From Octopus vulgaris (taxonomy: Eukaryota): DNA of 64,000 nucleotides. This document shows, one piece after another, positions 9,829-59,485 of the stretch; position 1 is the first letter of the stretch; each line of letters opens with the position of its first letter. Location of the stretch: the NCBI GenBank assembly GCA_951406725.2, contig OX597814.1:57164001-57228000 (forward strand), read 5' to 3'. The notes under the pieces are model-generated. The model saw nothing but the letters and a program-made list of their open reading frames with translations, was not told the DNA's origin and did not search any database. The translations under genes were made by a program, and so were the position numbers.

Positions 9829-10075
9829 CTTAATAAAAAAATAGAAGAGAGAAGAAGCATCATTAGTAACAATATAAAATTATACAATTTGTAGAAAAGC
9901 AACAAAATAATAATTCGTTCAAAGAAAGCACTTTTTTTTAAATTTATAAGGTGAAATTTAGTTGATATAAGAAAGTCGTTTGAATACTGTCATCCACACT
10001 TAATCGAGTTCATGGGGAAGACTCTCAATACTTATTTGTTGATTTTTACTAATCCTTACGTAGGAAAGGCTTGTA

Positions 10076-15439: not shown

Positions 15440-15803
15440 CGATAAAAAATTAAGGAAGTAAGCACCTACCAATATATAAATACCGCACAACTACAAAAAC
15501 TGTAAACCATAGCAAAAGTTTTAAAAAGAATGCACAAACGATCACCTTCAAAATAAAAAAAAAACCTTTAATATCTACAACTACTGCGAATACCTATTCT
15601 TTCCTTTATCCTTGAGTATTCGTAAAATGTAAACATCATCTACCTTTTTATTCTAAGAACACTACCATTTCTCGCTGTGCATTGATACAAAAGACCATAT
15701 TTACTAAATCTTGAAACTATACTATCTACAACTCGTCTTCTTTTCTTTTTGACTCTCCTTGAGTATTCGAAAATGTAACATAATTTTCATTACAAAGTCC
15801 TAT

Positions 15804-16030
15804 TGTTTTTCTCCAACTGGACAGACAAACGAACATCCCAAGAAAATTTTAAAACACTAATATATTACCCAAATACGTAAACACACCTTTTATGGCAACA
15901 ACACAATTGAATTCAGAAATTCAAAGATTCAACGACGTGAATAAAAGGTGTGTTTACGTGTTTGGGTAATACATTAAAGTATTTAATTTTCTTGAGATGT
16001 TCGTTTGTCTATCCAGTTGGAGAATACAGT
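15804..16030. repeat. Imperfect hairpin with ~90-bp arms; second copy 58611-58840
   Basis: ttctccaactggacagacaaacgaacatc...acaccttttat / ataaaaggtgt...gatgttcgtttgtctatccagttggagaa. Confidence 0.85.
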
Positions 16031-16129
16031 ATGTATATATATATATGTGTGTGTATGTGTGTGTGCGTGGGCGTGTATGTGTGTATGTATTTATATATAC
16101 ATATGCATGTATTTAAATATATATATATA

Positions 16130-17303: not shown

Positions 17304-19784
17304 TGGGCAAAAATAAAATAGACATCACTGCAGCACCAACAGCAGAAGAAGTGGAAGAATTTTGAAAAGAAATATGGTCGGCGAATGAGCAACCTCAGAA
17401 AAAACTATTAAAACAACGAACTTAGCAACTGAGCAACTTTGGACCCCTATAACAACTGAAGATGTCGCCCAGGCACTGTAAAGACTAAACAACTGGAAGG
17501 CACCCGGGCACGACAAGATCCCCAACTTCTGGTTAAAATATCTGACAGAAATACACAAAAAGCTGGCTGAAAACTTTAACGACATACTAGCAGAGCCCGA
17601 GAGAATGCCTGAATGTCTCACGAAAGGGAAGACAATCTTAATTCCCAAACCCACTGAAATGGCAAAAACACAAAACTACAGACCTATAACCTGACTCCCT
17701 ACATTTTACAAACGTTTATTGCAGTAATATCGCAAAGATTGAGCAAACATCTGGAAGAGCAGAAGGGATGCTGCAAAGGCTCATACGGCTGTAAAAACCA
17801 ACTAATGATCAATAAAGCCATAACTGAAGACACCCGCAGAAAGAAGAAAGGCCTCAGTATGGCCTGGATCGACTATCGAAAGGCTTTTGATAGTATTCCC
17901 CACACGTGAATCCTCGAAATACTAGCAATGAACAAAGTAGCACCAATAATTGTAAAATACATAAGACACTCTATGAATAAATGGCAGATAGTGTTACAGA
18001 TCCAAACAAAAGAGGGACTCGTAAAAACCAAAACCATTCCCATTAGAAGAGGAATATTCCAGGGAGACACGCTCTCTCCACTCCTTTTCTGCTTGGCACT
18101 GACACCTCTATCTGATATACTAAATAGAACTGGATGCGGATACAAATGTTACGGCAAAACAATCAGCAACCTTTTATATATGGATGACCTAAAACTATAC
18201 GCTACAAATGATAAACAGCTGGAAACACTACTACAGACAGAACATGGATTTACCAAAAAATTAGATATAAAATTTGGATTAGAAAAATGTGCCAAAGCTA
18301 CCCTGAAAAGAAAAAAACTAGTTAAGAGTAGCAACATCACACAAGATAAAGCCAATGAAATAAGAGAATTAAACCAAAGCCAGACTTACAAATATTTAGG
18401 AATCCATGAACTAGATATGATACAACACACACAAATGAAAGAGAAAATAAAGAAATAATACTATAGACCAGTTAGATCAATAATAAAAACAGAGCTCAAT
18501 GCTAAAAACCAGATAATTGATATTAACACTTTAGCCGTCGCAGTTATAAGTTACAGCTACAATATACTTAACTGGACACTAAATGAACTAAACAAAATAG
18601 ACAGGAAAACAAGAGAGATAATGACAAGATCTAGGATGCACCACCCAAAATCTGACATAGAAAGTCTATATATAGGTGTAGAAGGTGGTAGAGGCCTTAT
18701 ACAGCTGGAAAACTATTATAAAATAACTTCCATAGGACTACAAAAATATCTACTTCAGAAACAAAGAAAACTAATACAAAGAGCCACAAAACACGAGCAA
18801 AACAAAAAAAAAACAGTTCTCAGTATTTAAGGAAGCTGACAAATACAAACAAGAAATCATACTACCTAACAAATATGAAGAAGAATAAGAAGAAGAAACA
18901 ACAAAAGCTATAAAACAAATGAAATCCAAACTAAAACTAGAACAGCAACAGACCATAATAAAACGATGGCAAGAAAAGCCCCTTCATGGCAAATACTGGG
19001 CTAAACTAAATGCAAAAGAAATAGACAGAGAAAAATCACAGCAATGGTTGAGAAGCTCTGGAGGATTTTTAATTGCAGCACAAGACCAAAGCCTCCCCAC
19101 CAAAAGGAAACATAACAAGTAACTGCAGAATATGTGGAGATGGGCAAGAAACACTAAATCATATTATTTCTGGCTGCCCATTCCTGGCTAAGAAGGAATA
19201 TATTCACAGACACAACAGAGTTGGGAACTACATACACTGGAAGATATGCCAACACTATGGAATAACAGAAAAAAGATGGTATAGGCACACAGCAGAAAAG
19301 GTCACAGAAAACGAGAAAGTAACCATACTCTGGGATATGCCAATATACACAGATAGAGAAATTAAGGCCAATAGGCCCGATATAGTTGTGAGAGATCATG
19401 AAGAAAAAATGCTTTCTAACTGATGTATCAATACCAGCAGATGATAACATTTCTCTAAAAGAAATGGAGAAACTTTCAAAATACAAAGACCTGGAAATAG
19501 AGGTAACTCGAATTTGGAATCTAAAAATAGAAACAATTCCTATCATAGTAGGCGCATTAGGCATAATAAAAAAATATTCAGACAAATACATAATAAAAAC
19601 ACCAGGAGTCACAAATATATATATAACATACAGAAAATTGCACTAATTGGCACTGCACACATCCTACGCAAAACACTCTCAATACAGTAACCATAAGAGC
19701 ATCACAACAAACCACAGCACGTACCCAAGGCACACAGAGCTGTGCTCGGTAGTGGAGTGAAAGCACGTTATAAAAATAAAACTA

Positions 19785-25169: not shown

Positions 25170-26585
25170 AGACATTCCCCCTGGCCTACTTATCCACAAG
25201 GGAACACACCTGAAACAAAAACCAAACTTGAGAGACCTACCAAGGAAAAAAGAAACCAGCACTGATGGCTCTAACACCACCAATATCACATCAAACAAGA
25301 CAAAAGAGCAAATAAAGAGCTAAAAAATAAAGCGAAAAAAAGGATGATGAAAGAAGTAAAAATGGAGCAAAAAGCAAGTATAACGAAAAAGTCGGACAGT
25401 CAATACACAAAGGACTACCTAAAAAAAAAGTCCTGTCCAGAAGCCGTTGTAAGGCCGCAGCTGAGCAAAATCTTTTTTTATGCATGGCTCAAAAGAATGT
25501 GCAACGACTAACCTGGCTTCATCAATTCCAGAGTCGAAACTGGCGTCACAGCCAATGGATCCAGGGTGGCCACCACTGGTATCAGCTAAGAGATGACACC
25601 AGTATACTTCACAAACGTAAGAGGACTGTTATAATTCCGTAACAGAAGCAAAATTACCTTCCTGACAGACCTAGTAGCATTCAGTCAAGTCTTAGGCATA
25701 GCACTTACGCCCCTAAAACCCGAATTCGCAGATGTAGAAATACACATACAAAACTATGTTGTATTGCGAAGCGATAGAAAAGATAGGAGTCATGGCGGTG
25801 TTGAAATGTACATCCTGCCTAATGTGAAATGGCCTGAAGTCCTTTTTCTCTCGGAAATGACGCGATGTGAGCAAAGCCAGGAGGAACCCCTGTTCAACCT
25901 CACCAATAAGTTATACTTAGAGCAAATAATACTCCAAACAACCAGGGCAAATAATGTACTTGATTTCTACTTGATAAACAATGTGAATCTCATCAATAAA
26001 GTGAAAGTGACACCAACACTAATCTCAGATCACAACATAATAGAGCTGACCATGTATGAACCAAAGGAACCCACAGACATGCAGTCTATGAGAAGCACCC
26101 AAAATCTATCCAATCTAAACTATCACAAAGCAGACCAGATATCAACTGAGAAAGAGATCACCAAATGGGACGGCACCAATGTCTCTCTACACCTGACATA
26201 GACATGAAATTGAAAACTTTCATGTCTGTAATGCAAGCCATATGCTACAATCAATTTTGTCTCAGAGGGAAGGGCCAATGCACATAAAAGCAAAATTACC
26301 AGGAAGAGAAATGTTCATATGAGACGGCGTACAAAGATTGCAAACCGCCTCAACAACGATCAATTAGAAGCTGCTTGCCATAGCTCTTGCAGCATTACGA
26401 CTAGGTGCTAAAACAACTGCTCAGAAACTCAAAACGTTGACGTAATATACCTTGACTTTACAAAAGCCTTTGACAAAGTCGACCACGGTATGCGAGATCT
26501 TGGCATAGTTGGAAAACTTGAAGAAAGGCTACATGACTTTCTAAAAGATAGATATCAGGTAGTGATGGTTAATGGGGCCACCTCA
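25170..26585 (+). mobile_element. CR1-like LINE fragment (APE and partial RT), left-arm copy
   Basis: RSDRKDRSHGGV, TRANNVLD, SDHN, YLDFTKAFDKVDH. Confidence 0.8.
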
Positions 26586-28922: not shown

Positions 28923-29847
28923 TATCGTCGATGGATCCCAAGTTAACTCACAATAGATTTGATCAAAAGTAAATTTCATTTAACTAAGGTACCTTCAGCT
29001 TGATGAGTAGCTAGTGGAGTAACCCTCGATGAGTAATTATTACTTTAGAGATTCTGTTAGGAAACATATGTAGATTGGAATTTACCTATTCCAACCCCTG
29101 AATTCGAATTTTTATTCGCATACATAGCAACATTAGGGGGAAAATTTACAACCTTCTATGCCAATAAACTACTATTTTTCCTGAAAGTAGTTTTTATACC
29201 TTCTGCGGACTGCTCGAAATTTACGAACTTCCTACGCCTGAATCTTTAGATCTTATAATTATATATCATGTTCACACACACACACACATATATACATATC
29301 GTCAGCGGATCATATATACACTCTAAAATTTTGAGCAGTAATGTTGTTAAATATATGTCCGGTTCAATATATTTTACATGCAGTTAAATATAAATCCAGT
29401 CATAGAATGACCAATGGTTTCACATCCATAAAGCGCTTAGTCTTATACACGATTCGTCAGACTCCAGTAGTCAGACATTCATCAGTACTGTGTGTTATGC
29501 AGATGACGGTAATGGTTTGATTGGAAGATATTTTCAAAAGAGAAGTAACAGTGAATGAAATAATAGAAACGATAGGGCGCTGAACTTGTTACTAAGCAAC
29601 TTTTAGTATTTTCAAATAGGTTCCGAGTTTAAATCACCGTTGCTTTGATTCTGTCTTCTATCTCTCTGTATCGCATATAATTCTGTAGAAAATATATTTC
29701 AAGATTTTTAGCTTGATCAGTATTTCATAGACTTGCTCCTCGATGTATGTATGTATGTATGTATGTATGTATGTATGTATGTATGTGTATATGATTATAT
29801 ACATTACATACACATACATGCAGGCATACATAAATACATAGATACAT

Positions 29848-29934
<87 letters not shown>

Positions 29935-29944
29935 GAGCTGTAAC

Positions 29945-32395
29945 TTTTTGCAGAATCTAGTTCTGTATCCTGGTGGCAATTCTAGGGATTTTGGTACTAT
30001 GCAGTGGCACCCAGTCCTGCTGTTTATGTCACTGACAATGCCAAAATTTGGAACAAGTTTTTCTAGGATTTTCCAGACGTATATTACAGCGTATCTTTCC
30101 CGCCTTCGCTCTAGGAAGTAGAGTCTTAAATCTACCAGTCTCTTCCAGTAGCTGATATATCGCATTGTATCGATCTTCTTCGTGTAGCTTCGCTTGATCA
30201 CCTCGTATTCTGTCGTTAATTTTGCACTGTTTGGTGACCACAGTTGGAAGCAGTAAACCAGACGGCTGAGAACGAAAGTCCTCCAGAAGACCATCATGAC
30301 TTCCTTTTCTCTTGTTCTGAAAGTTCGAAGAATCCATCCTGCCAGATGTTTGTATTTTATTGCCAACTTCGTAATGTGCACCTGGAAAGATGCTTCATTA
30401 CTCATGCCGATACACAGGTCACGCACTGATTTTGATTCGAGAATTGGAATCCCACCTGGGCCAGTGTATTCTATCTGCTTTTCATTGAGCTTCCTGTGTT
30501 GGTAGCGCAGGGCTTGGAATTTTCCAACTGCATGTTATTTTCTTCAGCCTACTTGTATATTACGTCCAACTCATGTTGTAGATACACAACGTCTCCAGTA
30601 TTTTGTATCCTCTGAGAGTCTTTTGTATCATCTGCATAGCTAGCAAGGGTGGCTACTTGAGCAGCTGAGGGCATTCCAGATAGGGCCAATATGAATAGCT
30701 CCGACCACAGGACAGTGTCCTGTGGAACACCACTCATTGCTTGTTTTCTCGGAGGTGGCCCCATTGACCACCACTACCTGATATCTATCTTTTAGAAAGT
30801 CATGTAGCCTTTCTTCAAGTTTTCCAACTATGCCAAGATAACGCATACCGTGGTCGACTTTGTCAAAGGCTTTTGTAAAGTCGAGGTATATTATGTCAAC
30901 ATTTGAGTTGCTGAGCAGCTGTTTTAGCACCCAGACGTAATGCTGCAGGAGCCATGGCAAGCAGCTTCTAATTGGTCGTTGTTGAGGCGGTTTGCAATCT
31001 TTGTACGCCGTCTCATATGAACATTTCTCTTCCTGGTAATTTTGTTTTTATGTGCATTGGCCCTTCCCTCTGAGACAAAATTGATTGTAGCATATGGCTT
31101 GCATTACAGACATGAAAGTTTTCAATTTCATATCTATGTCAGGTGTAGAGAGACATTGGTGCCGTCCCATTTGGTGATCTCTTTCTCAGTTGATATCCGT
31201 TCTGTTTGTGGTAGTTTAGATTGGATAGATTTTGGGTGCTTCTCATAGACTGCATGTCTGTGGGTTCCTTTAGTTCATACATGGTCAGCTCTATTATGTT
31301 GTGATCTGAGATTAGTGTTGGTGTCACTTTCACTTTATTGATGAGATTCACATTGTTTATCAAGTAGAAATCAAGTACATTATTTGCCCTGGTTGTTTGG
31401 AGTGTTATTTGCTCTATGTATAACTTATTGGTGAGATTGAGCAGGGGTTCCTCCTGGCTTTGCTCACATCGCGTCATTTCCGAGAGAAAAAGGGCTTCAG
31501 GCCATTTCACATTAGGCAGGTTAAACTTTCCTATATGAAACTCATCTATTATTGCAAGGCAGTCTTCGAATAGGTCCAAGTGATTTGAAGCATCTATTGG
31601 GCGATATGTAGTACATATGACTTTGTCGGGTTGTCTTATATGTACAATTAGCGTGTTACATACTGAATTTGAACGTGACAAATGGATCTGGAGCGTGAGA
31701 TCTTCACGGATGTACATTCCAACACCGCCATGACTCCTATCTTTTCTATCGCTTTGCAATACAACATAGTTTTGTATGTGTATTTCTACATCTGCGATGT
31801 CAGGTTTTAGGGGCGTTTTAATGTGTGCTATGCCTAAGACTTGACTGAATGCTACTAGGTTTGTCAGGAAGGTAATTTTACTTCTGTTACGGAATTATAA
31901 CAGTCCTCTTACGTTTCTGAAGTATACTGGTGTTATCTCTGAGCTAATACCAGTGGAGGCCACCCTGGATCCATTGGCTGTGGCGACCTTGCGTGTTGGT
32001 GGGGACTGTTTCGACTCTGGAATTGATGAAGCCAGGTTAGTCGTTGCACATTCTTTTGAGCCATGCATAAAAAAAGATTTTGCTCAGCTGCGGCCTTATA
32101 ACGGCTTCTGGACAGGACTTTTTTTTTTTAGGTAGTGCCTTTGTGTATTGACTGTCCGACTTTTTCGTTGTACTTGCTTTTTGCTCCATTTTTACTTCTT
32201 TCATCATCCTTTTTTTCGCTTTATTTTTTAGCTCTTTATTTGCTCTTTTGTCCTGTTTGATGTGATATTGGTGGTGTTAGAGCCATCAGTGCTGGTTTCT
32301 TTTTTCCTTGGTAGGTCTCTCAAGTTTGGTTTTTGTTTCAGGTGTGTTCCCTTGTGGATAAGTAGGCCAGGGGGAATGTCTACGCTTGTTGTCAC
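29945..32395 (-). mobile_element. CR1-like LINE, internally deleted and disrupted
   Basis: APE motifs (31139..31759), LDFTKAFDKVDH, SGVPQ-TVL, YADDTK, GWILRTF, LERRRERY. Confidence 0.88.
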
Positions 32396-44745: not shown

Positions 44746-44782
<37 letters not shown>

Positions 44783-44878
44783 ATAAAACGGTAAGATAAC
44801 AAAAGAAAGAAAGAGACCTCAATATTATGTAAATAGAGGAAATTTATCTATACAATATGTTACATTACTCGGTAGTCA

Positions 44879-44941
44879 AGATAAAACTCTGAGTTTCAGA
44901 TGCCGAAGTGGAAATCCACAACACCATCTCTTCGGTTATCT
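44879..44941 (-). ncRNA. Type I hammerhead-like ribozyme, unit 1; further - copies at 47459-47521, 50038-50100, 52623-52685
   Basis: Sense agataa CCGAAGA gatg..catc t GAA actc a gagt T ttatct; stems I, II and III all pair. Confidence 0.75.
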
Positions 44942-45126
44942 GGCTATTTGAAAACGTTATGAAAAAATACCGTTAAAAATGAAGGGAAATTACTCTGTTA
45001 TAACTCTGCTTTGCCTGCGTACTTATACATCGCTCGCATTTTTCGTCATAAAAATTATATAAAAATACATAAAAAATATATAAAAATATATAAAATCTTC
45101 TTGGGACATAACACAGAAAGCATGTT

Positions 45127-47253
45127 CTATCCGTTTTCTTTAGGGGACCAAAAACGTAACAGAAATTTAGTCACATGTGGGCATGATCCGAAAAGTTCTG
45201 TCCTTGTATTTAGACATGTGGTAGGGTCTAAGCTGCTTTTCCAGATAAGCCATCTCTCCATGTCGCATAAACCGCACCTTCCGCTGCCGTTAGTATAGGG
45301 CTTACATCTGGCCAAAATCTTCCATTGTATGTTATAATCGACACCTTTATCTCTTAAAGACCAAATATGATTGGATAATTGTGTCGCTTTTCTTTTGTTC
45401 CAGTGCCTAAAGCTCAAAGTGTGGTTATTGAACCTGGTCTTGAAATTACCCTCTGTCAGGCCCACGTATTTCTTCGTCAAAACGGTGTCTTTAGTGGTTA
45501 TAGAGTTTACGGTAGCCTCATATATGATGGTCTTGGACATGCAAGCTCCATTTAGCGGGCACAATTCTTTATTCCTGCATGAACAGCTGTTTTCTTCTTG
45601 TGTTTTTTGTATGTTATGATTGATTATGTTTTTAAAATTGGTAGTTGAACTAAAACTAATTTTTAAATTGTGTCTATTGAAGAGTTTCCTATAAGCATGG
45701 TTAACTGGAAAATGTCTATCTATCAGTGCTAGGAAATATTTACCTATATTGAAGGCCACCTCGGGTGAGTAAGGGGGCGTAAACCAGATGACCTTCCTAT
45801 TTCTATTATTCCTTTTCCTTATTGTTGGGCTGGTGATAGGTGTATATTTTATTTTTTCGCTAAAACCACTATCTTTTAAAGCTTTATTATAAACTGGGGC
45901 AACGCTATTGAAGATGTCCTCATTAGATGAGAGGCTAGAAATCCTATTACTAATATTTTTAACTAAATTTTTGAATACTATAGGGGGATGGCATGAACCT
46001 ACATTAATATAACTTAGTCTATCATTGGGCTTCCTATAAGGCTTATAAATATTATTATTAAGATCTAAGGAAACGTCTAAGAAATTGACAACCGTCAGGT
46101 TAGTGTCTATAGTTATACTAAGTCCGAAGTGTTTCATTAACTGGATAATATCCTTCCTAAAACGATCTTGTGCTGGTCCATTTGTATTAGCTGTTAAGGC
46201 GAGGGCATCATCTTTGTAGATGGCGAAATGTACGTTAGGGAATGTCTTACTGAAGGTATCTAGGAGAAAGAGTCCAATTAGATCACAGATGCCTGCCCCA
46301 TCATATGAACCCATGCTCACATCGAAAGCGCCCTCCGTGTCGGTGTTTTTTACCCACTTTGCATTCTCACTGAAAAGTAATGTCTTTCTAGCATGGAAGA
46401 TTATATCCTTATCATTGGTACTAATTTCTATGAAGTCACTAGCGAAGATTAGGGCTTTATCTAGCAGTTCTTTAGAGATAGAGGCATAAAAATCAACAAT
46501 ATCGAATTGTGTAAACCTCGCTTTTTTCTTATTCTTAATAGCTTTAAACCAGTCTACGACTTCTATACTATTGGACCATTGCACTAGCCTAGTATCGCTC
46601 TTAATTTTCGTATTTATTTTATCTAAAATTTCTTTGCTAATAATCCCTAGTTCTGACTTGGCTGGGTTGATAAGCCTACATTTAGGATTGGAAAGGAAGT
46701 TTTCTTTGTGGTCTTTAATAGTAATAAAGGCCTCTTTTTGGGGGAGGGTTTCTATTTTTTTATCTAATTTAAGTTTAGCGGCGATGACGCTAGCTTCTTT
46801 ATTAATTTCGTTATATGTCTGTGCCCTAGCTTTAGTATAATTATTAATGATGCTGTTGTGTAAGAGTTGTGTGTATTTGCTGTTATCTACCAGGTATAAG
46901 TTCTTGGTTTTATCCGAAAAAAGTGCTTTTTTCTTGGAGCTTTTTATATGATCAATATCTTTCTTCAATTTATGTTGGAAATTGTTAAAAGACTTACGAA
47001 ACTTTATTTTGCTCATGATCTTCAGCAGGTCCGCTTCGAAATCTTCCAAGCCTTTAATCCTAGGAGGGAATTTTTTGGATTTTATCCGATAGCAAATGTT
47101 TTCCTTGGTGTTCGCTTCTGTGTCAAAAAAGAAAGCCTTCCATCTCATACGCTTAATTACATCAGTAATTTTTTGCAGAAGTTTCTTAGAGTAAAAATCC
47201 TTTGATGGGATCGGTATATTTTTCATAGAATAATCTATGTGATATGCGTCCAT
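45127..47253 (-). CDS. Penelope/Naiad RT + GIY-YIG endonuclease, 708 aa, intact
   Basis: KDHK, RLINP, FDIVDFY-SI, MGSYDGA, YKDD, FLDVSLDL, CSC-CPLNGAC, IIY..YVG, R..NH, CGLCDME, CPH. Confidence 0.95.
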   Translation of the reverse strand: MDAYHIDYSMKNIPIPSKDFYSKKLLQKITDVIKRMRWKAFFFDTEANTKENICYRIKSKKFPPRIKGLEDFEADLLKIMSKIKFRKSFNNFQHKLKKDIDHIKSSKKKALFSDKTKNLYLVDNSKYTQLLHNSIINNYTKARAQTYNEINKEASVIAAKLKLDKKIETLPQKEAFITIKDHKENFLSNPKCRLINPAKSELGIISKEILDKINTKIKSDTRLVQWSNSIEVVDWFKAIKNKKKARFTQFDIVDFYASISKELLDKALIFASDFIEISTNDKDIIFHARKTLLFSENAKWVKNTDTEGAFDVSMGSYDGAGICDLIGLFLLDTFSKTFPNVHFAIYKDDALALTANTNGPAQDRFRKDIIQLMKHFGLSITIDTNLTVVNFLDVSLDLNNNIYKPYRKPNDRLSYINVGSCHPPIVFKNLVKNISNRISSLSSNEDIFNSVAPVYNKALKDSGFSEKIKYTPITSPTIRKRNNRNRKVIWFTPPYSPEVAFNIGKYFLALIDRHFPVNHAYRKLFNRHNLKISFSSTTNFKNIINHNIQKTQEENSCSCRNKELCPLNGACMSKTIIYEATVNSITTKDTVLTKKYVGLTEGNFKTRFNNHTLSFRHWNKRKATQLSNHIWSLRDKGVDYNIQWKILARCKPYTNGSGRCGLCDMERWLIWKSSLDPTTCLNTRTELFGSCPHVTKFLLRFWSPKENG

Positions 47254-47706
47254 ATTAGATTCTTTTGTTTGTGAGAGTCCTCAACCGATGTTAGGCGATA
47301 ATCCCAAAAAGGTCGTATTAGCTCTTAGTTGAGAATAACGTCGTCCGGGAGGTGATTTATTGATAAAACGGTAAGATAACAAAAGAAAGAAAGAGACCTC
47401 AATATTATGTAAATAGAGGAAATTTATCTATACAATATGTTACATTACTCGGTAGTCAAGATAAAACTCTGAGTTTCAGATGCCGAAGTGGAAATCCACA
47501 ACACCATCTCTTCGGTTATCTGGCTATTTGAAAACGTTATGAAAAAATACCGTTAAAAATGAAGGGAAATTACTCTGTTATAACTCTGCTTTGCCTGCGT
47601 ACTTATACATCGCTCGCATTTTTCGTCATAAAAATTATATAAAAATACATAAAAAATATATAAAAATATATAAAATCTTCTTGGGACATAACACAGAAAG
47701 CATGTT

Positions 47707-49832
47707 CTATCCGTTTTCTTTAGGGGACCAAAAACGTAACAGAAATTTAGTCACATGTGGGCATGATCCGAAAAGTTCTGTCCTTGTATTTAGACATGTG
47801 GTAGGGTCTAAGCTGCTTTTCCAGATAAGCCATCTCTCCATGTCGCATAAACCGCACCTTCCGCTGCCGTTAGTATAGGGCTTACATCTGGCCAAAATCT
47901 TCCATTGTATGTTATAATCGACACCTTTATCTCTTAAAGACCAAATATGATTGGATAATTGTGTCGCTTTTCTTTTGTTCCAGTGCCTAAAGCTCAAAGT
48001 GTGGTTATTGAACCTGGTCTTGAAATTACCCTCTGTCAGGCCCACGTATTTCTTCGTCAAAACGGTGTCTTTAGTGGTTATAGAGTTTACGGTAGCCTCA
48101 TATATGATGGTCTTGGACATGCAAGCTCCATTTAGCGGGCACAATTCTTTATTCCTGCATGAACAGCTGTTTTCTTCTTGTGTTTTTTGTATGTTATGAT
48201 TGATTATGTTTTTAAAATTGGTAGTTGAACTAAAACTAATTTTTAAATTGTGTCTATTGAAGAGTTTCCTATAAGCATGGTTAACTGGAAAATGTCTATC
48301 TATCAGTGCTAGGAAATATTTACCTATATTGAAGGCCACCTCGGGTGAGTAAGGGGGCGTAAACCAGATGACCTTCCTATTTCTATTATTCCTTTTCCTT
48401 ATTGTTGGGCTGGTGATAGGTGTATATTTTATTTTTTCGCTAAAACCACTATCTTTTAAAGCTTTATTATAAACTGGGGCAACGCTATTGAAGATGTCCT
48501 CATTAGATGAGAGGCTAGAAATCCTATTACTAATATTTTTAACTAAATTTTTGAATACTATAGGGGGATGGCATGAACCTACATTAATATAACTTAGTCT
48601 ATCATTGGGCTTCCTATAAGGCTTATAAATATTATTATTAAGATCTAAGGAAACGTCTAAGAAATTGACAACCGTCAGGTTAGTGTCTATAGTTATACTA
48701 AGTCCGAAGTGTTTCATTAACTGGATAATATCCTTCCTAAAACGATCTTGTGCTGGTCCATTTGTATTAGCTGTTAAGGCGAGGGCATCATCTTTGTAGA
48801 TGGCGAAATGTACGTTAGGGAATGTCTTACTGAAGGTATCTAGGAGAAAGAGTCCAATTAGATCACAGATGCCTGCCCCATCATATGAACCCATGCTCAC
48901 ATCGAAAGCGCCCTCCGTGTCGGTGTTTTTTACCCACTTTGCATTCTCACTGAAAAGTAATGTCTTTCTAGCATGGAAGATTATATCCTTATCATTGGTA
49001 CTAATTTCTATGAAGTCACTAGCGAAGATTAGGGCTTTATCTAGCAGTTCTTTAGAGATAGAGGCATAAAAATCAACAATATCGAATTGTGTAAACCTCG
49101 CTTTTTTCTTATTCTTAATAGCTTTAAACCAGTCTACGACTTCTATACTATTGGACCATTGCACTAGCCTAGTATCGCTCTTAATTTTCGTATTTATTTT
49201 ATCTAAAATTTCTTTGCTAATAATCCCTAGTTCTGACTTGGCTGGGTTGATAAGCCTACATTTAGGATTGGAAAGGAAGTTTTCTTTGTGGTCTTTAATA
49301 GTAATAAAGGCCTCTTTTTGGGGAGGGTTTCTATTTTTTTATCTAATTTAAGTTTAGCGGCGATGACGCTAGCTTCTTTATTAATTTCGTTATATGTCTG
49401 TGCCCTAGCTTTAGTATAATTATTAATGATGCTGTTGTGTAAGAGTTGTGTGTATTTGCTGTTATCTACCAGGTATAAGTTCTTGGTTTTATCCGAAAAA
49501 AGTGCTTTTTTCTTGGAGCTTTTTATATGATCAATATCTTTCTTCAATTTATGTTGGAAATTGTTAAAAGACTTACGAAACTTTATTTTGCTCATGATCT
49601 TCAGCAGGTCCGCTTCGAAATCTTCCAAGCCTTTAATCCTAGGAGGGAATTTTTTGGATTTTATCCGATAGCAAATGTTTTCCTTGGTGTTCGCTTCTGT
49701 GTCAAAAAAGAAAGCCTTCCATCTCATACGCTTAATTACATCAGTAATTTTTTGCAGAAGTTTCTTAGAGTAAAAATCCTTTGATGGGATCGGTATATTT
49801 TTCATAGAATAATCTATGTGATATGCGTCCAT
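47707..49832 (-). pseudogene. Naiad ORF copy 2, 1-bp frameshift
   Basis: G5 to G4 at ~49321; otherwise matches copy 1; may be a homopolymer sequencing error. Confidence 0.85.
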
Positions 49833-50290
49833 ATTAGATTCTTTTGTTTGTGAGAGTCCTCAACCGATGTTAGGCGATAATCCCAAAAAGGTCGTATTAG
49901 CTCTTAGTTGAGAATAACGTCGTCCGGGAGGTGATTTATTGATAAAACGGTAAGATAACAAAAGAAAGAAAGAGACCTCAATATTATGTAAATAGAGGAA
50001 ATTTATCTATACAATATGTTACATTACTCGGTAGTCAAGATAAAACTCTGAGTTTCAGATGCCGAAGTGGAAATCCACAACACCATCTCTTCGGTTATCT
50101 GGCTATTTGAAAACGTTATGAAAAAATACCGTTAAAAATGAAGGGAAATTACTCTGTTATAACTCTGCTTTGCCTGCGTACTTATACATCGCTCGCATTT
50201 TTCGTCATAAAAATTATATAAAAATACATAAAAAATATATAAAAATATATAAAAATATATCTTCTTGGGACATAACACAGAAAGCATGTT

Positions 50291-52417
50291 CTATCCGTTT
50301 TCTTTAGGGGACCAAAAACGTAACAGAAATTTAGTCACATGTGGGCATGATCCGAAAAGTTCTGTCCTTGTATTTAGACATGTGGTAGGGTCTAAGCTGC
50401 TTTTCCAGATAAGCCATCTCTCCATGTCGCATAAACCGCACCTTCCGCTGCCGTTAGTATAGGGCTTACATCTGGCCAAAATCTTCCATTGTATGTTATA
50501 ATCGACACCTTTATCTCTTAAAGACCAAATATGATTGGATAATTGTGTCGCTTTTCTTTTGTTCCAGTGCCTAAAGCTCAAAGTGTGGTTATTGAACCTG
50601 GTCTTGAAATTACCCTCTGTCAGGCCCACGTATTTCTTCGTCAAAACGGTGTCTTTAGTGGTTATAGAGTTTACGGTAGCCTCATATATGATGGTCTTGG
50701 ACATGCAAGCTCCATTTAGCGGGCACAATTCTTTATTCCTGCATGAACAGCTGTTTTCTTCTTGTGTTTTTTGTATGTTATGATTGATTATGTTTTTAAA
50801 ATTGGTAGTTGAACTAAAACTAATTTTTAAATTGTGTCTATTGAAGAGTTTCCTATAAGCATGGTTAACTGGAAAATGTCTATCTATCAGTGCTAGGAAA
50901 TATTTACCTATATTGAAGGCCACCTCGGGTGAGTAAGGGGGCGTAAACCAGATGACCTTCCTATTTCTATTATTCCTTTTCCTTATTGTTGGGCTGGTGA
51001 TAGGTGTATATTTTATTTTTTCGCTAAAACCACTATCTTTTAAAGCTTTATTATAAACTGGGGCAACGCTATTGAAGATGTCCTCATTAGATGAGAGGCT
51101 AGAAATCCTATTACTAATATTTTTAACTAAATTTTTGAATACTATAGGGGGATGGCATGAACCTACATTAATATAACTTAGTCTATCATTGGGCTTCCTA
51201 TAAGGCTTATAAATATTATTATTAAGATCTAAGGAAACGTCTAAGAAATTGACAACCGTCAGGTTAGTGTCTATAGTTATACTAAGTCCGAAGTGTTTCA
51301 TTAACTGGATAATATCCTTCCTAAAACGATCTTGTGCTGGTCCATTTGTATTAGCTGTTAAGGCGAGGGCATCATCTTTGTAGATGGCGAAATGTACGTT
51401 AGGGAATGTCTTACTGAAGGTATCTAGGAGAAAGAGTCCAATTAGATCACAGATGCCTGCCCCATCATATGAACCCATGCTCACATCGAAAGCGCCCTCC
51501 GTGTCGGTGTTTTTTACCCACTTTGCATTCTCACTGAAAAGTAATGTCTTTCTAGCATGGAAGATTATATCCTTATCATTGGTACTAATTTCTATGAAGT
51601 CACTAGCGAAGATTAGGGCTTTATCTAGCAGTTCTTTAGAGATAGAGGCATAAAAATCAACAATATCGAATTGTGTAAACCTCGCTTTTTTCTTATTCTT
51701 AATAGCTTTAAACCAGTCTACGACTTCTATACTATTGGACCATTGCACTAGCCTAGTATCGGTCTTAATTTTCGTATTTATTTTATCTAAAATTTCTTTG
51801 CTAATAATCCCTAGTTCTGACTTGGCTGGGTTGATAAGCCTACATTTAGGATTGGAAAGGAAGTTTTCTTTGTGGTCTTTAATAGTAATAAAGGCCTCTT
51901 TTTGGGGGAGGGTTTCTATTTTTTTATCTAATTTAAGTTTAGCGGCGATGACGCTAGCTTCTTTATTAATTTCGTTATATGTCTGTGCCCTAGCCTTAGT
52001 ATAATTATTAATGATGCTGTTGTGTAAGAGTTGTGTGTATTTGCTGTTATCTACCAGGTATAAGTTCTTGGTTTTATCCGAAAAAAGTGCTTTTTTCTTG
52101 GAGCTTTTTATATGATCAATATCTTTCTTCAATTTATGTTGGAAATTGTTAAAAGACTTACGAAACTTTATTTTGCTCATGATCTTCAGCAGGTCCGCTT
52201 CGAAATCTTCCAAGCCTTTAATCCTAGGAGGGAATTTTTTGGATTTTATCCGATAGCAAATGTTTTCCTTGGTGTTCGCTTCTGTGTCAAAAAAGAAAGC
52301 CTTCCATCTCATACGCTTAATTACATCAGTAATTTTTTGCAGAAGTTTCTTAGAGTAAAAATCCTTTGATGGGATCGGTATATTTTTCATAGAATAATCT
52401 ATGTGATATGCGTCCAT
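50291..52417 (-). CDS. Naiad ORF copy 3, 708 aa, intact
   Basis: Same as copy 1 except KSDTR to KTDTR. Confidence 0.95.
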   Translation of the reverse strand: MDAYHIDYSMKNIPIPSKDFYSKKLLQKITDVIKRMRWKAFFFDTEANTKENICYRIKSKKFPPRIKGLEDFEADLLKIMSKIKFRKSFNNFQHKLKKDIDHIKSSKKKALFSDKTKNLYLVDNSKYTQLLHNSIINNYTKARAQTYNEINKEASVIAAKLKLDKKIETLPQKEAFITIKDHKENFLSNPKCRLINPAKSELGIISKEILDKINTKIKTDTRLVQWSNSIEVVDWFKAIKNKKKARFTQFDIVDFYASISKELLDKALIFASDFIEISTNDKDIIFHARKTLLFSENAKWVKNTDTEGAFDVSMGSYDGAGICDLIGLFLLDTFSKTFPNVHFAIYKDDALALTANTNGPAQDRFRKDIIQLMKHFGLSITIDTNLTVVNFLDVSLDLNNNIYKPYRKPNDRLSYINVGSCHPPIVFKNLVKNISNRISSLSSNEDIFNSVAPVYNKALKDSGFSEKIKYTPITSPTIRKRNNRNRKVIWFTPPYSPEVAFNIGKYFLALIDRHFPVNHAYRKLFNRHNLKISFSSTTNFKNIINHNIQKTQEENSCSCRNKELCPLNGACMSKTIIYEATVNSITTKDTVLTKKYVGLTEGNFKTRFNNHTLSFRHWNKRKATQLSNHIWSLRDKGVDYNIQWKILARCKPYTNGSGRCGLCDMERWLIWKSSLDPTTCLNTRTELFGSCPHVTKFLLRFWSPKENG

Positions 52418-52880
52418 ATTAGATTCTTTTGTTTGTGAGAGTCCTCAACCGATGTTAGGCGATAATCCCAAAAAGGTCGTATTAGCTCTTAGTTGAGAAT
52501 AACGTCGTCCGGGAGGTGATTTATTGATAAAACGGTAAGATAACAAAAGAAAGAAAGAGACCTCAATATTATGTAAATAGAGGAAATTTATCTATACAAT
52601 ATGTTACATTACTCGGTAGTCAAGATAAAACTCTGAGTTTCAGATGCCGAAGTGGAAATCCACAACACCATCTCTTCGGTTATCTGGCTATTTGAAAACG
52701 TTATGAAAAAATACCGTTAAAAATGAAGGGAAATTACTCTGTTATAACTCTGCTTTGCCTGCGTACTTATACATCGCTCGCATTTTTCGTCATAAAAATT
52801 ATATAAAAATACATAAAAAATATATAAAAATATATAAAAATATATAAAATCTTCTTGGGACATAACACAGAAAGCATGTT

Positions 52881-55007
52881 CTATCCGTTTTCTTTAGGGG
52901 ACCAAAAACGTAACAGAAATTTAGTCACATGTGGGCATGATCCGAAAAGTTCTGTCCTTGTATTTAGACATGTGGTAGGGTCTAAGCTGCTTTTCCAGAT
53001 AAGCCATCTCTCCATGTCGCATAAACCGCACCTTCCGCTGCCGTTAGTATAGGGCTTACATCTGGCCAAAATCTTCCATTGTATGTTATAATCGACACCT
53101 TTATCTCTTAAAGACCAAATATGATTGGATAATTGTGTCGCTTTTCTTTTGTTCCAGTGCCTAAAGCTCAAAGTGTGGTTATTGAACCTGGCCTTGAAAT
53201 TACCCTCTGTCAGGCCCACGTATTTCTTCGTCAAAACGGTGTCTTTAGTGGTTATAGAGTTTACGGTAGCTTCATATATGATGGTCTTGGACATGCAAGC
53301 TCCATTTAGCGGGCACAATTCTTTATTCCTGCATGAACAGCTGTTTTCTTCTTGTGTTTTTTGTATGTTATGATTGATTATGTTTTTAAAATTGGTAGTT
53401 GAACTAAAACTAATTTTTAAATTGTGTCTATTGAAGAGTTTCCTATAAGCATGGTTAACTGGAAAATGTCTATCTATCAGTGCTAGGAAATATTTACCTA
53501 TATTGAAGGCCACCTCGGGTGAGTAAGGGGGCGTAAACCAGATGACCTTCCTATTTCTATTATTCCTTTTCCTTATTGTTGGGCTGGTGATAGGTGTATA
53601 TTTTATTTTTTCGCTAAAACCACTATCTTTTAAAGCTTTATTATAAACTGGGGCAACGCTATTGAAGATGTCCTCATTAGATGAGAGGCTAGAAATCCTC
53701 TTACTAATATTTTTAACTAAATTTTTGAATACTATAGGGGGATGGCATGAACCTACATTAATATAACTTAGTCTATCATTGGGCTTCCTATAAGGCTTAT
53801 AAATATTATTATTAAGATCTAAGGAAACGTCTAAGAAATTGACAACCGTCAGGTTAGTGTCTATAGTTATACTAAGTCCGAAGTGTTTCATTAACTGGAT
53901 AATATCCTTCCTAAAACGATCTTGTGCTGGTCCATTTGTATTAGCTGTTAAGGCGAGGGCATCATCTTTGTAGATGGCGAAATGTACGTTAGGGAATGTC
54001 TTACTGAAGGTATCTAGGAGAAAGAGTCCAATTAGATCACAGATGCCTGCCCCATCATATGAACCCATGCTCACATCGAAAGCGCCCTCCGTGTCGGTGT
54101 TTTTTACCCACTTTGCATTCTCACTGAAAAGTAATGTCTTTCTAGCATGGAAGATTATATCCTTATCATTGGTACTAATTTCTATGAAGTCACTAGCGAA
54201 GATTAGGGCTTTATCTAGCAGTTCTTTAGAGATAGAGGCATAAAAATCAACAATATCGAATTGTGTAAACCTCGCTTTTTTCTTATTCTTAATAGCTTTA
54301 AACCAGTCTACGACTTCTATACTATTGGACCATTGCACTAGCCTAGTATCGGTCTTAATTTTCGTATTTATTTTATCTAAAATTTCTTTGCTAATAATCC
54401 CTAGTTCTGACTTGGCTGGGTTGATAAGCCTACATTTAGGATTGGAAAGGAAGTTTTCTTTGTGGTCTTTAATAGTAATAAAGGCCTCTTTTTGGGGGAG
54501 GGTTTCTATTTTTTTATCTAATTTAAGTTTAGCGGCGATGACGCTAGCTTCTTTATTAATTTCGTTATATGTCTGTGCCCTAGCCTTAGTATAATTATTA
54601 ATGATGCTGTTGTGTAAGAGTTGTGTGTATTTGCTGTTATCTACCAGGTATAAGTTCTTGGTTTTATCCGAAAAAAGTGCTTTTTTCTTGGAGCTTTTTA
54701 TATGATCAATATCTTTTTTCAATTTATGTTGGAAATTGTTAAAAGACTTACGAAACTTTATTTTGCTCATGATCTTCAGCAGGTCCGCTTCGAAATCTTC
54801 CAAGCCTTTAATCCTAGGAGGGAATTTTTTGGATTTTATCCGATAGCAAATGTTTTCCTTGGTGTTCGCTTCTGTGTCAAAAAAGAAAGCCTTCCATCTC
54901 ATACGCTTAATTACATCAGTAATTTTTTGCAGAAGTTTCTTAGAGTAAAAATCCTTTGATGGGATCGGTATATTTTTCATAGAATAATCTATGTGATATG
55001 CGTCCAT
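52881..55007 (-). CDS. Naiad ORF copy 4, 708 aa, intact
   Basis: KTDTR, ISKRI and FKARF variants. Confidence 0.95.
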   Translation of the reverse strand: MDAYHIDYSMKNIPIPSKDFYSKKLLQKITDVIKRMRWKAFFFDTEANTKENICYRIKSKKFPPRIKGLEDFEADLLKIMSKIKFRKSFNNFQHKLKKDIDHIKSSKKKALFSDKTKNLYLVDNSKYTQLLHNSIINNYTKARAQTYNEINKEASVIAAKLKLDKKIETLPQKEAFITIKDHKENFLSNPKCRLINPAKSELGIISKEILDKINTKIKTDTRLVQWSNSIEVVDWFKAIKNKKKARFTQFDIVDFYASISKELLDKALIFASDFIEISTNDKDIIFHARKTLLFSENAKWVKNTDTEGAFDVSMGSYDGAGICDLIGLFLLDTFSKTFPNVHFAIYKDDALALTANTNGPAQDRFRKDIIQLMKHFGLSITIDTNLTVVNFLDVSLDLNNNIYKPYRKPNDRLSYINVGSCHPPIVFKNLVKNISKRISSLSSNEDIFNSVAPVYNKALKDSGFSEKIKYTPITSPTIRKRNNRNRKVIWFTPPYSPEVAFNIGKYFLALIDRHFPVNHAYRKLFNRHNLKISFSSTTNFKNIINHNIQKTQEENSCSCRNKELCPLNGACMSKTIIYEATVNSITTKDTVLTKKYVGLTEGNFKARFNNHTLSFRHWNKRKATQLSNHIWSLRDKGVDYNIQWKILARCKPYTNGSGRCGLCDMERWLIWKSSLDPTTCLNTRTELFGSCPHVTKFLLRFWSPKENG

Positions 55008-55214
55008 ATTAGATTCTTTTGTTTGTGAGAGTCCTCAACCGATGTTAGGCGATAATCCCAAAAAGGTCGTATTAGCTCTTAGTTGAGAATAACGTCGTCC
55101 GGGAGGTGATTTATTGATAAAACGGTAAGATAACAAAAGAAAGAAAGAGACCTCAATATTATGTAAATAGAGGAAATTTATCTATACAATATGTTACATT
55201 ACTCGGTAGTCAAG

Positions 55215-55714
55215 TACCAATTAAAAACATAATCAATATAACATCAAAAAAACAAGAAGAAAACCTGTTCATGCAGATAAAAATTTGCGCTAAATGATTG
55301 CATGTCCAAGACCATCATATATGAGCTACCGTAAACTCTATAACCACTAAAGACACCGTTTTGACGAAGAAATACGTGGGCCTGACAGAGGGTAATTTCA
55401 AGACCAGGTTCAATAACCACACTTTGAGCTTTAGGCACTGGAACAAAAGAAAAGCGACACAATTATCCAATCATATTTGGTCTTTAAGAGATAAAGGTGT
55501 CGATTATAACATACAATGGAAGATTTTGGCCAGATGTAAGCCCTATACTAACGGCAGCGGAAGGTGCGGTTTATGCGACATGGAGAGATGGCTTATCTGG
55601 AAAAGCAGCTTAGACCCTACCACATGTCTAAATACAAGGACAGAACTTTTCGGATCATGCCCACATGTGACTAAATTTCTGTTACGTTTTTGGTCCCCTA
55701 AAGAAAACGGATAG
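55215..55714 (+). pseudogene. 5'-truncated Naiad ORF (GIY-YIG part) at the inversion junction
   Basis: Corresponds to 57789-58305; first ~115 bp carry many small deletions. Confidence 0.9.
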
Positions 55715-55911
55715 AACATGCTTTCTGTGTTATGTCCCAAGAAGATTTTATATATTTTTATATATTTTTTTTATATATTTTTATGTATTTTTATATAATT
55801 TTTATGACGAAAAATGCGAGCGATGTATAAGTACGCAGGCAAAGCAGAGTTATAACAGAGTAATTTCCCTTCATTTTTAACGGTATTTTTTCATAACGTT
55901 TTCAAATAGCC

Positions 55912-55974
55912 AGATAACCGAAGAGATGGTGTTGTGGATTTCCACTTCGGCATCTGAAACTCAGAGTTTTATCT
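55912..55974 (+). ncRNA. Hammerhead-like ribozyme, inverted arm; second + copy 58491-58553
   Basis: Same sequence as the - copies; predicted cleavage after GUU at 55968. Confidence 0.75.
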
Positions 55975-56179
55975 TGACTACCGAGTAATGTAACATATTG
56001 TATAGATAAATTTCCTCTATTTACATAATATTGAGGTCTCTTTCTTTCTTTTGTTATCTTACCGTTTTATCAATAAATCACCTCCCGGACGACGTTATTC
56101 TCAACTAAGAGCTAATACGACCTTTTTGGGATTATCGCCTAACATCGGTTGAGGACTCTCACAAACAAAAGAATCTAAT

Positions 56180-58305
56180 ATGGACGCATATCACATAGAT
56201 TATTCTATGAAAAATATACCGATCCCATCAAAGGATTTTTACTCTAAGAAACTTCTGCAAAAAATTACTGATGTAATTAAGCGTATGAGATGGAAGGCTT
56301 TCTTTTTTGACACAGAAGCGAACACCAAGGAAAACATTTGCTATCGGATAAAATCCAAAAAATTCCTCCTAGGATTAAAGGCTTGGAAGATTTCGAAGCG
56401 GACCTGCTGAAGATCATGAGCAAAATAAAGTTTCGTAAGTCTTTTAACAATTTCCAACATAAATTGAAGAAAGATATTGATCATATAAAAAGCTCCAAGA
56501 AAAAAGCACTTTTTTCGGATAAAACCAAGAACTTATACCTGGTAGATAACAGCAAATACACACAACTCTTACACAACAGCATCATTAATAATTATACTAA
56601 AGCTAGGGCACAGACATATAACGAAATTAATAAAGAAGCTAGCGTCATCGCCGCTAAACTTAAATTAGATAAAAAAATAGAAACCCTCCCCCAAAAAGAG
56701 GCCTTTATTACTATTAAAGACCACAAAGAAAACTTCCTTTCCAATCCTAAATGTAGGCTTATCAACCCAGCCAAGTCAGAACTAGGGATTATTAGCAAAG
56801 AAATTTTAGATAAAATAAATACGAAAATTAAGAGCGATACTAGGCTAGTGCAATGGTCCAATAGTATAGAAGTCGTAGACTGGTTTAAAGCTATTAAGAA
56901 TAAGAAAAAAGCGAGGTTTACACAATTCGATATTGTTGATTTTTATGCCTCTATCTCTAAAGAACTGCTAGATAAAGCCCTAATCTTCGCTAGTGACTTC
57001 ATAGAAATTAGTACCAATGATAAGGATATAATCTTCCATGCTAGAAAGACATTACTTTTCAGTGAGAATGCAAAGTGGGTAAAAAACACCGACACGGAGG
57101 GCGCTTTCGATGTGAGCATGGGTTCATATGATGGGGCAGGCATCTGTGATCTAATTGGACTCTTTCTCCTAGATACCTTCAGTAAGACATTCCCTAACGT
57201 ACATTTCGCCATCTACAAAGATGATGCCCTCGCCTTAACAGCTAATACAAATGGACCAGCACAAGATCGTTTTAGGAAGGATATTATCCAGTTAATGAAA
57301 CACTTCGGACTTAGTATAACTATAGACACTAACCTGACGGTTGTCAATTTCTTAGACGTTTCCTTAGATCTTAATAATAATATTTATAAGCCTTATAGGA
57401 AGCCCAATGATAGACTAAGTTATATTAATGTAGGTTCATGCCATCCCCCTATAGTATTCAAAAATTTAGTTAAAAATATTAGTAATAGGATTTCTAGCCT
57501 CTCATCTAATGAGGACATCTTCAATAGCGTTGCCCCAGTTTATAATAAAGCTTTAAAAGATAGTGGTTTTAGCGAAAAAATAAAATATACACCTATCACC
57601 AGCCCAACAATAAGGAAAAGGAATAATAGAAATAGGAAGGTCATCTGGTTTACGCCCCCTTACTCACCCGAGGTGGCCTTCAATATAGGTAAATATTTCC
57701 TAGCACTGATAGATAGACATTTTCCAGTTAACCATGCTTATAGGAAACTCTTCAATAGACACAATTTAAAAATTAGTTTTAGTTCAACTACCAATTTTAA
57801 AAACATAATCAATCATAACATACAAAAAACACAAGAAGAAAACAGCTGTTCATGCAGGAATAAAGAATTGTGCCCGCTAAATGGAGCTTGCATGTCCAAG
57901 ACCATCATATATGAGGCTACCGTAAACTCTATAACCACTAAAGACACCGTTTTGACGAAGAAATACGTGGGCCTGACAGAGGGTAATTTCAAGACCAGGT
58001 TCAATAACCACACTTTGAGCTTTAGGCACTGGAACAAAAGAAAAGCGACACAATTATCCAATCATATTTGGTCTTTAAGAGATAAAGGTGTCGATTATAA
58101 CATACAATGGAAGATTTTGGCCAGATGTAAGCCCTATACTAACGGCAGCGGAAGGTGCGGTTTATGCGACATGGAGAGATGGCTTATCTGGAAAAGCAGC
58201 TTAGACCCTACCACATGTCTAAATACAAGGACAGAACTTTTCGGATCATGCCCACATGTGACTAAATTTCTGTTACGTTTTTGGTCCCCTAAAGAAAACG
58301 GATAG
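56180..58305 (+). pseudogene. Naiad ORF copy 5 (inverted), 1-bp frameshift
   Basis: CCC to CC at ~56365; otherwise like copies 1 and 2; may be a homopolymer error. Confidence 0.85.
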
Positions 58306-58581
58306 AACATGCTTTCTGTGTTATGTCCCAAGAAGATTTTATATATTTTTATATATTTTTTATGTATTTTTATATAATTTTTATGACGAAAAATGCGAGC
58401 GATGTATAAGTACGCAGGCAAAGCAGAGTTATAACAGAGTAATTTCCCTTCATTTTTAACGGTATTTTTTCATAACGTTTTCAAATAGCCAGATAACCGA
58501 AGAGATGGTGTTGTGGATTTCCACTTCGGCATCTGAAACTCAGAGTTTTATCTTGACTACCGAGTAATGTAACATATTGTA

Positions 58582-58612
<31 letters not shown>

Positions 58613-59485
58613 TGTATTCTCCAAATGGATAGACAGACGAACATCTCAAGAAAATTAAATACTTTAACATATTACCCAAATACGTAAACACACCTTTTAT
58701 TCACGTCGTTGAATCTTTGAATTTCTGAATTCAGTTGTGTTGTTGCAATAAAAGGTGTGTTTACTTATTTGGGTAATATATTAGTGTTTTAAAATTTTCT
58801 TGAGATGTTCGTTTGTCTGTCCAGTTGGAGAAAAACAGTAGGACTTTTGCAATGAAAAATGTTACATTTTCGAATACTCAGGGGGAGTCAAAAAGAAAAG
58901 AAAACGAGTTGTAGATAGTATAGTTTTAAGATTTACTAAATATGGTCTTTTGTATCAATGCACAGCGAGAAATGATAGTGTTCTTAGAATAAAAAGGTAG
59001 ATGATGTTTACATTTTACGAATATTCAGGGATAAAGGAAAAGATAGGAATTCACAGTAGTTGTAGATATTAAAGGTTTTTTTGTTTTAAAGCTAATCGTT
59101 TGTGCATTCGAAAGCTGTAGGTATGTAAGTTTCCTCACGTTTGAGGAAGATTTAAAATATTCACAGGAAATTGCAGATATTCCAGTCTTTGGGAATAGCA
59201 GGAGAAAGAGATGATCACCTTGTTGGATTTTAGAATTTCTGAATTTCTTTTCTTTTGGAATTTTTCTTTTCTTTTTATATGTTTTGCTGTGGTTTACAGT
59301 TTTTGTAGTTGTGCTTCCTTGCTTAATATTTATCGTGCATTTAATTGAGTTGATACAATAAATAGCATGATTACCTATTCTGTTTGTCAGGAAAGAATGA
59401 AAGATACGAGGTTCACACAAAATTGGAGGTATAAATGTTTCTAAACTTTTTGAGGTGTTCGTTCGAAGAAGACTGTGGTCACCAC

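Follow-up and report, generated by a model that had tools for sequence, protein, structure and literature searches.

An array of reverse transcriptase units in Octopus vulgaris

We analyzed a stretch of 64,000 nucleotides from the Octopus vulgaris genome (assembly GCA_951406725.2, contig OX597814.1, positions 57,164,001 to 57,228,000 of the forward strand), referred to here as the window. It contains an array of units of about 2.58 kb, each with one open reading frame (ORF) for a reverse transcriptase (RT) followed by a GIY-YIG endonuclease. Self-comparison resolved the array into two arms, one of 4.04 units on the minus strand and one of 1.31 units on the plus strand (5.35 units in all), and both flanks of the insertion consist of (TA)n. 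The features, in window positions, are as follows.

44749-44780, no strand: (TA)n target tract, left flank
44781-55214, minus: long arm, four full units plus 100 bp; its 3′ end is the long start site, with a 61-bp tail
44873-44946, minus: hammerhead-like motif copy 1, minimal type I, predicted cut between 44885 and 44884
45127-47253, minus: ORF 1, intact, 708 aa, RT then GIY-YIG, haplotype H0
47453-47526, minus: hammerhead-like motif copy 2
47707-49832, minus: ORF 2, one base missing from a C run, 2126 bp, frameshifted, haplotype H0
50032-50105, minus: hammerhead-like motif copy 3
50291-52417, minus: ORF 3, intact; 3′ part H0, 5′ part with two alleles of another haplotype
52617-52690, minus: hammerhead-like motif copy 4
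52881-55007, minus: ORF 4, intact; a different haplotype (6 sites), also present at other loci
55207-55214, no strand: head-to-head inversion junction, 5-bp overlap
55210-58587, plus: inverted arm, the 3′ third of a unit plus one unit; its 3′ end is the short start site, tail-less
55907-55980, plus: hammerhead-like motif copy 5
56180-58305, plus: ORF 5, one base missing from a C run, 2126 bp, frameshifted, haplotype H0
58486-58559, plus: hammerhead-like motif copy 6
58588-58609, no strand: (TA)n target tract, right flank

Positions within a unit are given as q, counted along the minus strand, with q1 at window position 47360 and q2580 at 44781. The minus arm comprises four units of 2580, 2579, 2585 and 2590 bp followed by 100 bp (q2481-2580), and the plus arm runs from q1713 to q2580 and then from q1 to q2519. 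The original prediction, made from the sequence of the window, had proposed 5.3 near-identical units of about 2.58 kb, a 2127-bp ORF with three intact copies and two single-base frameshifts, and one ribozyme per unit. These points were borne out: identity to unit 1 is 99.4-100%, the spacers between ORFs measure 453, 458, 463 and 465 bp, and six identical hammerhead-like motifs, whose cleavage is predicted, lie one in each spacer. The precise head-to-tail geometry also proposed holds inside each arm and fails for the whole, where the arms meet head to head at 55210-55214. At the start of the plus arm (55210-55345, about 135 bp beside the inversion junction), 17 bases are deleted relative to the unit, likely as uncorrected long-read errors next to a hairpin; the two ORF frameshifts may therefore be errors as well.

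The array element belongs to the Hydra clade of Penelope-like elements

The unit of 2.58-2.59 kb encodes a single product of 708 aa, with the RT catalytic motif at residues 346-349 and an endonuclease that begins beyond residue 576. The Pfam match to GIY-YIG was weak (residues 594-623, E 0.013, under the cut-off), and the GIY-YIG residues IIYEA..YVG, R607, E666 and N682 are conserved in an alignment of 119 of the 120 listed homologues. A sequence search against solved structures gave no match; the predicted structure (predicted local distance difference test score, 93.9) resembles RTs, including telomerases.

The Hydra clade of Penelope-like elements (PLEs), as defined in PMC8557442, has a C-terminal GIY-YIG, a length below 3 kb, the motifs RWK, DKT (from DKG) and CxCX5C, CxxC and CxH beside conserved E and N, (TA)n targets and a hammerhead near the 3′ end. 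Here RWK is found at residues 37-39, DKT at 114-116, CxCX5C at 557-565, CxxC at 660-663 and CxH at 691-693, and (TA)n was the target on both flanks of the array as well as at most of 60 loci. On clade motifs and architecture, the array element is almost certainly a Hydra-clade PLE. The original prediction had named it a Naiad element, a label that has to be withdrawn: the Naiad clade is defined by an N-terminal endonuclease, a length of 3.4-4.4 kb, DKA and the lack of a canonical hammerhead (PMC8557442), and the order RT then endonuclease, the 2.59-kb unit, DKT and the hammerhead-like motif rule that identity out. Another Hydra family from octopus is listed there. The family described here is new within an established clade; its complex insertion is of a type already known, and the array by itself stands at the extreme end of a structure described before.

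Two RT motifs depart from the homologues. Residues 256-258 read YAS in 162/165 family segments vs YPS in 117/119 homologues, and residues 346-351 read YKDDAL in 188/188 family segments vs YRDDG in 119/119 homologues; these variants sit in a recently spread element.

A young family with genome-wide multimers

The exact 22-mer of the ribozyme has 3,453 matches in the genome and the sequence just upstream of it 1,426, and many full units elsewhere are 99-100% identical. Against diverged copies, the ratio of nonsynonymous to synonymous change in the ORF (pN/pS) is about 0.2 in most of 17 segments (range 0-0.49), which indicates purifying selection. These data agree with the proposal that the element is young, autonomous and probably active. 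Of 71 complete ORF spans at fetched loci, 27 are intact. The loci fetched for the family numbered 80; they lie within the initial 90 Mb of contig 1 and were chosen with two exact motifs.

A survey of multimer lengths, which the original prediction had suggested, found multimers genome-wide. There are 152 head-to-tail junctions; most of the first 100 were examined as loci, the remaining 52 standing outside this set. Grouped by position, these 100 fall into 82 arms with one junction, five with two and two with four. The second four-junction arm, on contig 3 (L119/L120, G000:C3:37223190-37238614), is accompanied by an inverted arm of 1.6 units and has one haplotype throughout, which makes it a better candidate than the window array for a pure rolling-circle product.

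Two fixed start sites are paired in every simple insertion

The 3′ ends of arms are fixed at two positions 61 bp apart, a long end at q2580 and a short end at q2519, one per arm. At loci with one TA-abutting end per strand, a long end was paired with a short end in 67/67 cases; one complex locus has two long and two short ends. In the PLE of the anole, two RT start sites lie around the tail, both target strands are cut and extended, and a dimer is predicted (PMC11167929), and by analogy the 67/67 pairing fits two start sites and a dimer here. The two arms of a pair ended at most 50 nt apart in 13 of 83 long pairs vs 4.6 expected (p 0.0007). Fold-back as the sole origin of the inverted arms was rejected, as most paired arms differ widely in length. 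The long arm in the window stops 4 nt before it reaches the predicted ribozyme cut, a distance within chance.

The hammerhead-like motif carries a probably derived core

The motif consists of stem I (GATAA/TTATC), the core CCGAAGA, a stem II with one extra base ahead of GAAA, a palindromic stem III (ACTC-A-GAGT) and U17. Its position and stems fit the canonical Hydra hammerhead, from which the core deviates by C4 and the extra base before GAAA. It was found with a descriptor, and the same architecture was present on the sense strand in 32 of 77 related metagenome loci (L194-L270), in none on the antisense strand and in 0/77 shuffled loci in each of 20 rounds. An Rfam scan of the locus returned no ribozyme family at E <= 1, only microsatellite noise, and free folding of the motif region formed stems I and II without stem III (z about -1.6), a result that supports neither side.

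Among the motifs of the relatives, U4 occurs in 40/40, A17 in 33/40 and U17 in 2/40. An older subfamily in the octopus genome (L111-L118) has the canonical core CUGAAGA, with 2,516 motif matches. The possibility that these canonical copies arose by CpG decay of the array-type core was rejected, because the product expected from the opposite strand had 122 matches vs 2,516. Since the older subfamily keeps U4, the C4 of the array motif is most likely the derived state. This subfamily is 76-90% identical to the family over the 3′ end and is represented mainly by short 3′ fragments. In vitro, the U4C change is reported to lower hammerhead activity strongly, yet to permit viroid infection (PMC3088659).

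Copying probably proceeds without a nearby template end

For the lap statistics, 71 of the 89 arms were entered, mini-units and odd loci being excluded. Among arms that had passed q2387, the lap was completed by 6/58 in the first lap and 7/57 in the second (Fisher p 0.78), and the termination hazard was 0.86 per kb in lap 1 vs 0.87 in lap 2 (Kolmogorov-Smirnov p 0.26). Most junction-crossing arms (57/71) extend beyond the presumed start region, and the lengths of their partial upstream units are smoothly spread from 61 to 2553. A hotspot at q2387-2433, the end point of 24/82 first-lap vs 4/61 second-lap arms (p 0.0006), is presumed to mark where short or capped RNAs have their 5′ end. Every long arm crosses the predicted cut, which was unchanged in 276 of 284 passes (overlapping fetches included), the changes being six substitutions, one deletion and one insertion. 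Equal laps, loss of the hotspot in lap 2 and a scar-free cut point to a template without a nearby end, either a circle closed by ligation or a long multimer left uncleaved. Thus, the footprints of the family favor an endless template.

In three sequencing runs that we guessed to be RNA, contigs cover the whole unit, although contigs cannot show strand, ends or circles, and one of them crosses the unit junction by 34 bases. A joint in these contigs that goes back on itself was considered as a sign of a circle and rejected, as it corresponds to the ORF cut by our choice of query stretch. The relatives lie mostly on contigs about one unit long (2.2-3 kb); 10/77 metagenome contigs have overlapping ends, which fits tandem DNA equally with circles and was not used.

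Arrays are repeatedly homogeneous, and the window array is a mosaic

We compared haplotypes at 11 polymorphic sites in 55 loci. Units were concordant in 50/55 loci, vs a discordance of 79% among 15,378 between-locus pairs, and variants private to one fetched locus were common to its tandem units in at least 8 loci. Homogeneous arrays with at least two junctions occur in four haplotypes. Together, these patterns suggest that arrays have been repeatedly rebuilt from one variant. In an older locus (L051), the two arms have 8 private variants in common.

The window array is a mosaic, as is L187. In the window array, units 1 and 2 share their haplotype with the inverted arm, two alleles of unit 3 are foreign to it and unit 4 is of another haplotype. 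Hence one circle alone did not make the window array, and template switching, conversion or misassembly must have contributed at least once.

Mini-units may arise by joining short RNAs

Mini-units of about 270-410 bp were present at seven loci (L136, L152, L164, L173, L177, L182 and L183; for example, G000:C13:77665300-77666200). They contain the ribozyme, the tail and the first 93-213 nt of the unit, with q93-213 joined to q2387-2434. The junctions differ locus by locus, and the presumed RNA 3′ ends never fall below q93; splicing was rejected as their source because each locus has its own junction. At one locus the junction is identical in both arms. An extra G stands ahead of the 5′ end in 5/7 loci, which we take to be a copied cap by analogy with L1. 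The mini-units look like retrozymes being born, in agreement with a 2026 preprint in which phylogeny places the origin of animal retrozymes in PLEs (10.64898/2026.07.22.740005).

Models for the formation of the arrays

Weighing these results, the explanation of this young insertion that we rank first, at about even odds, is that its two arms arose in one event, with two RTs acting on a predicted circular RNA of unit length; the circle step taken by itself could, in our judgment, fall either way. The event could proceed as follows. A copy with a partial unit upstream would be transcribed over two hammerheads. Slow, perhaps protein-assisted cleavage would release a monomer of about 2.59 kb, to be ligated to a circle. 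A protein dimer would then nick both strands of (TA)n and prime one cDNA per start site on the same RNA, and each RT would run until it dropped off, about once per 1.2 kb regardless of lap, so that a tenth of long arms would exceed one unit. The two cDNA ends would be joined through microhomology. Because units 3 and 4 change haplotype, the long arm of the window would in addition have moved onto one or more further RNA molecules, or have undergone conversion later. As linear copying keeps or shortens arrays, some re-expansion step is needed, and rolling-circle reverse transcription supplies it most simply. The idea of a circular RNA and rolling-circle copying in PLEs was proposed in 2014 (PMC4209133).

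A wider version of this model, which we put forward tentatively and hold at slightly under even, is that of an autonomous coding retrotransposon with a ribozyme-made circular RNA intermediate of about 2.6 kb, copied lap after lap by an RT dimer that begins at two fixed sites, in which the slow U4C hammerhead would keep the circle intact and retrozyme-like mini-units of about 300 nt would keep arising de novo through the end-to-end joining of short RNAs. The original prediction had gone further and spoken of a replicon, which overstates the case, as nothing supports RNA-to-RNA replication.

Several observations weigh against copying on a circle. The circle is deduced from genomic footprints, and the RNA itself is predicted. 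The array motif has C4, at a position where all 40 motifs of relatives have U4, together with U17, so that the hammerhead looks weakened; metazoan PLE hammerheads cleave poorly (PMC4209133), and the anole PLE, the one PLE studied in vitro, inserts without cleavage, no reads being reported to end at its cut (PMC11167929). Among the family arms examined, 5′ ends were not enriched at the predicted cut. Two four-junction arms among 89 are more than the roughly 0.04 expected from a geometric series at 7/89 per lap. The window array is one of the five discordant loci, and within-locus homogeneity could also be caused by gene conversion or consensus polishing. Finally, at one mini-unit locus the arm junctions differ by 3 nt, which fits jumping on linear RNA and means that the RT can switch templates.

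Some of these points lead to a different template, an uncleaved multi-unit linear RNA, with arrays re-extended by seamless switching between sister RNAs and a ribozyme that is weak or has another role. For the anole PLE, a multi-copy linear mRNA has been proposed (PMC11167929); the C4 and U17 of the hammerhead agree with it, it accounts for the excess of four-junction arms, the mosaics at the window array and L187 show RNA switching or later exchange, and homogeneous arrays that could serve as sources exist (L119/L120, L123/L124 and L126/L127). However, linear copying only shortens arrays, yet homogeneous ones appear in the four haplotypes mentioned above. Finite RNAs should also pile up 5′ ends in lap 2, where no such pile-up was seen; at the presumed RNA 5′ end, the RT stops or jumps with a scar, as in the mini-units; and 0/7 multi-junction arms (first 100 of 152 junctions) carry the common AGCCG-type haplotype. 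We regard a linear multimer as a real possibility, if a doubtful one.

Growth at the DNA level is improbable. Insertions of about one unit would later have expanded and been homogenized by unequal exchange and by gene conversion between repeats and palindrome arms, which would account for the four-junction tail, the stretch of foreign alleles within unit 3 and the private variants common to the arms of L051; nevertheless, unequal exchange adds whole units, and the smooth range of partial lengths needs a long template during copying. An assembly artefact as the source of the copy number or haplotype mosaic in the window array is very improbable: the units are >99% alike, the 17 deletions by the junction and the single-base deletions suggest noisy reads and just 27/71 ORF spans are intact, yet the ends and junction in the window obey the 67/67 rule, the flanks are unique, spacer lengths differ between units, the same assembly has a second four-junction array and five two-junction arms, and an artefact here would leave the family-wide statistics standing.

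The in vivo role of PLE hammerheads and the origin of tandem and inverted copies are called open in PMC8557442, PMC4209133 and PMC11167929. The footprints of this family narrow the question to the two published models, one with a circle made by the ribozyme and one with a linear mRNA of multiple copies, and lean to the circle. In the literature that we searched, mostly outside subscription journals, we found no demonstrated full-length PLE circle and no lap-by-lap analysis; the genomic footprints (lap hazards, 5′ ends, haplotype sharing and paired start sites) are new here. Being young and abundant, the family offers a short, intact and recently active element suited to a direct test.

Other features of the window

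The segment at 58595-59109 repeats 15528-16046 in the opposite orientation, with 93% identity over 520 bp; it resembles a miniature inverted-repeat transposable element and has an internal inverted repeat at 58611-58839. A stop-to-stop frame at 9627-9989 (minus strand) contains two EF-hand-like loops and may be an exon of a calmodulin-like host gene. The segments 2779-4879, 17910-18830, 25635-26201 and 29725-31894 we take to be decayed fragments resembling the reverse transcriptase and endonuclease genes of long interspersed nuclear elements.

Comparison with known systems

The closest likeness is to the Hydra elements Hydra-1_Obim and Penelope-3_HM (PMC8557442), which have a single ORF in less than 3 kb, RT then GIY-YIG, the clade motifs, (TA)n targets and a 3′ hammerhead; Hydra elements likewise form tandem and inverted arms with an optional tail. 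Penelope-3_HM has a stem III and cut triplet that read identically to those of the array element, and Hydra-1_Obim is a different family, judged by its ribozyme region and its length (2507 bp vs about 2590 bp here). Known Hydra elements are reported to have a tail of 30-40 bp (PMC8557442), compared with 61 bp in the array family, and the family also differs in the core CCGAAGA and in YKDDA, where 119/119 homologues have YRDDG. With the Naiad clade it shares the (TA)n target, tandem and inverted insertions and a tail (PMC8557442).

The Poseidon element PAc of Anolis resembles the family in its tandem loci, two start sites bracketing the tail, use of both strands and a predicted dimer (PMC11167929). 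It belongs to another clade, and its start sites lie inside the ORF, whereas those of the array family lie about 108 and 169 nt before the ORF.

Retrozymes of the non-long-terminal-repeat (non-LTR) type are likewise built of tandem units, each carrying one type I hammerhead, and both rolling-circle reverse transcription and an origin from PLEs have been proposed for them (PMC7761336; 10.64898/2026.07.22.740005), the derivation of animal retrozymes from PLEs resting on phylogeny (10.64898/2026.07.22.740005). They are non-coding, 150-300 nt long, and their circles have been shown, whereas the array unit has 2.59 kb, encodes RT and endonuclease, and has a predicted circle. The 708-aa ORF under purifying selection sets the full unit apart from a non-coding, non-autonomous class. 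If the circle is true, the element would stand beside retrozymes as their autonomous equivalent and would reveal the source of animal retrozymes; the mini-units of about 270-410 bp are closer to retrozymes than the full unit is.

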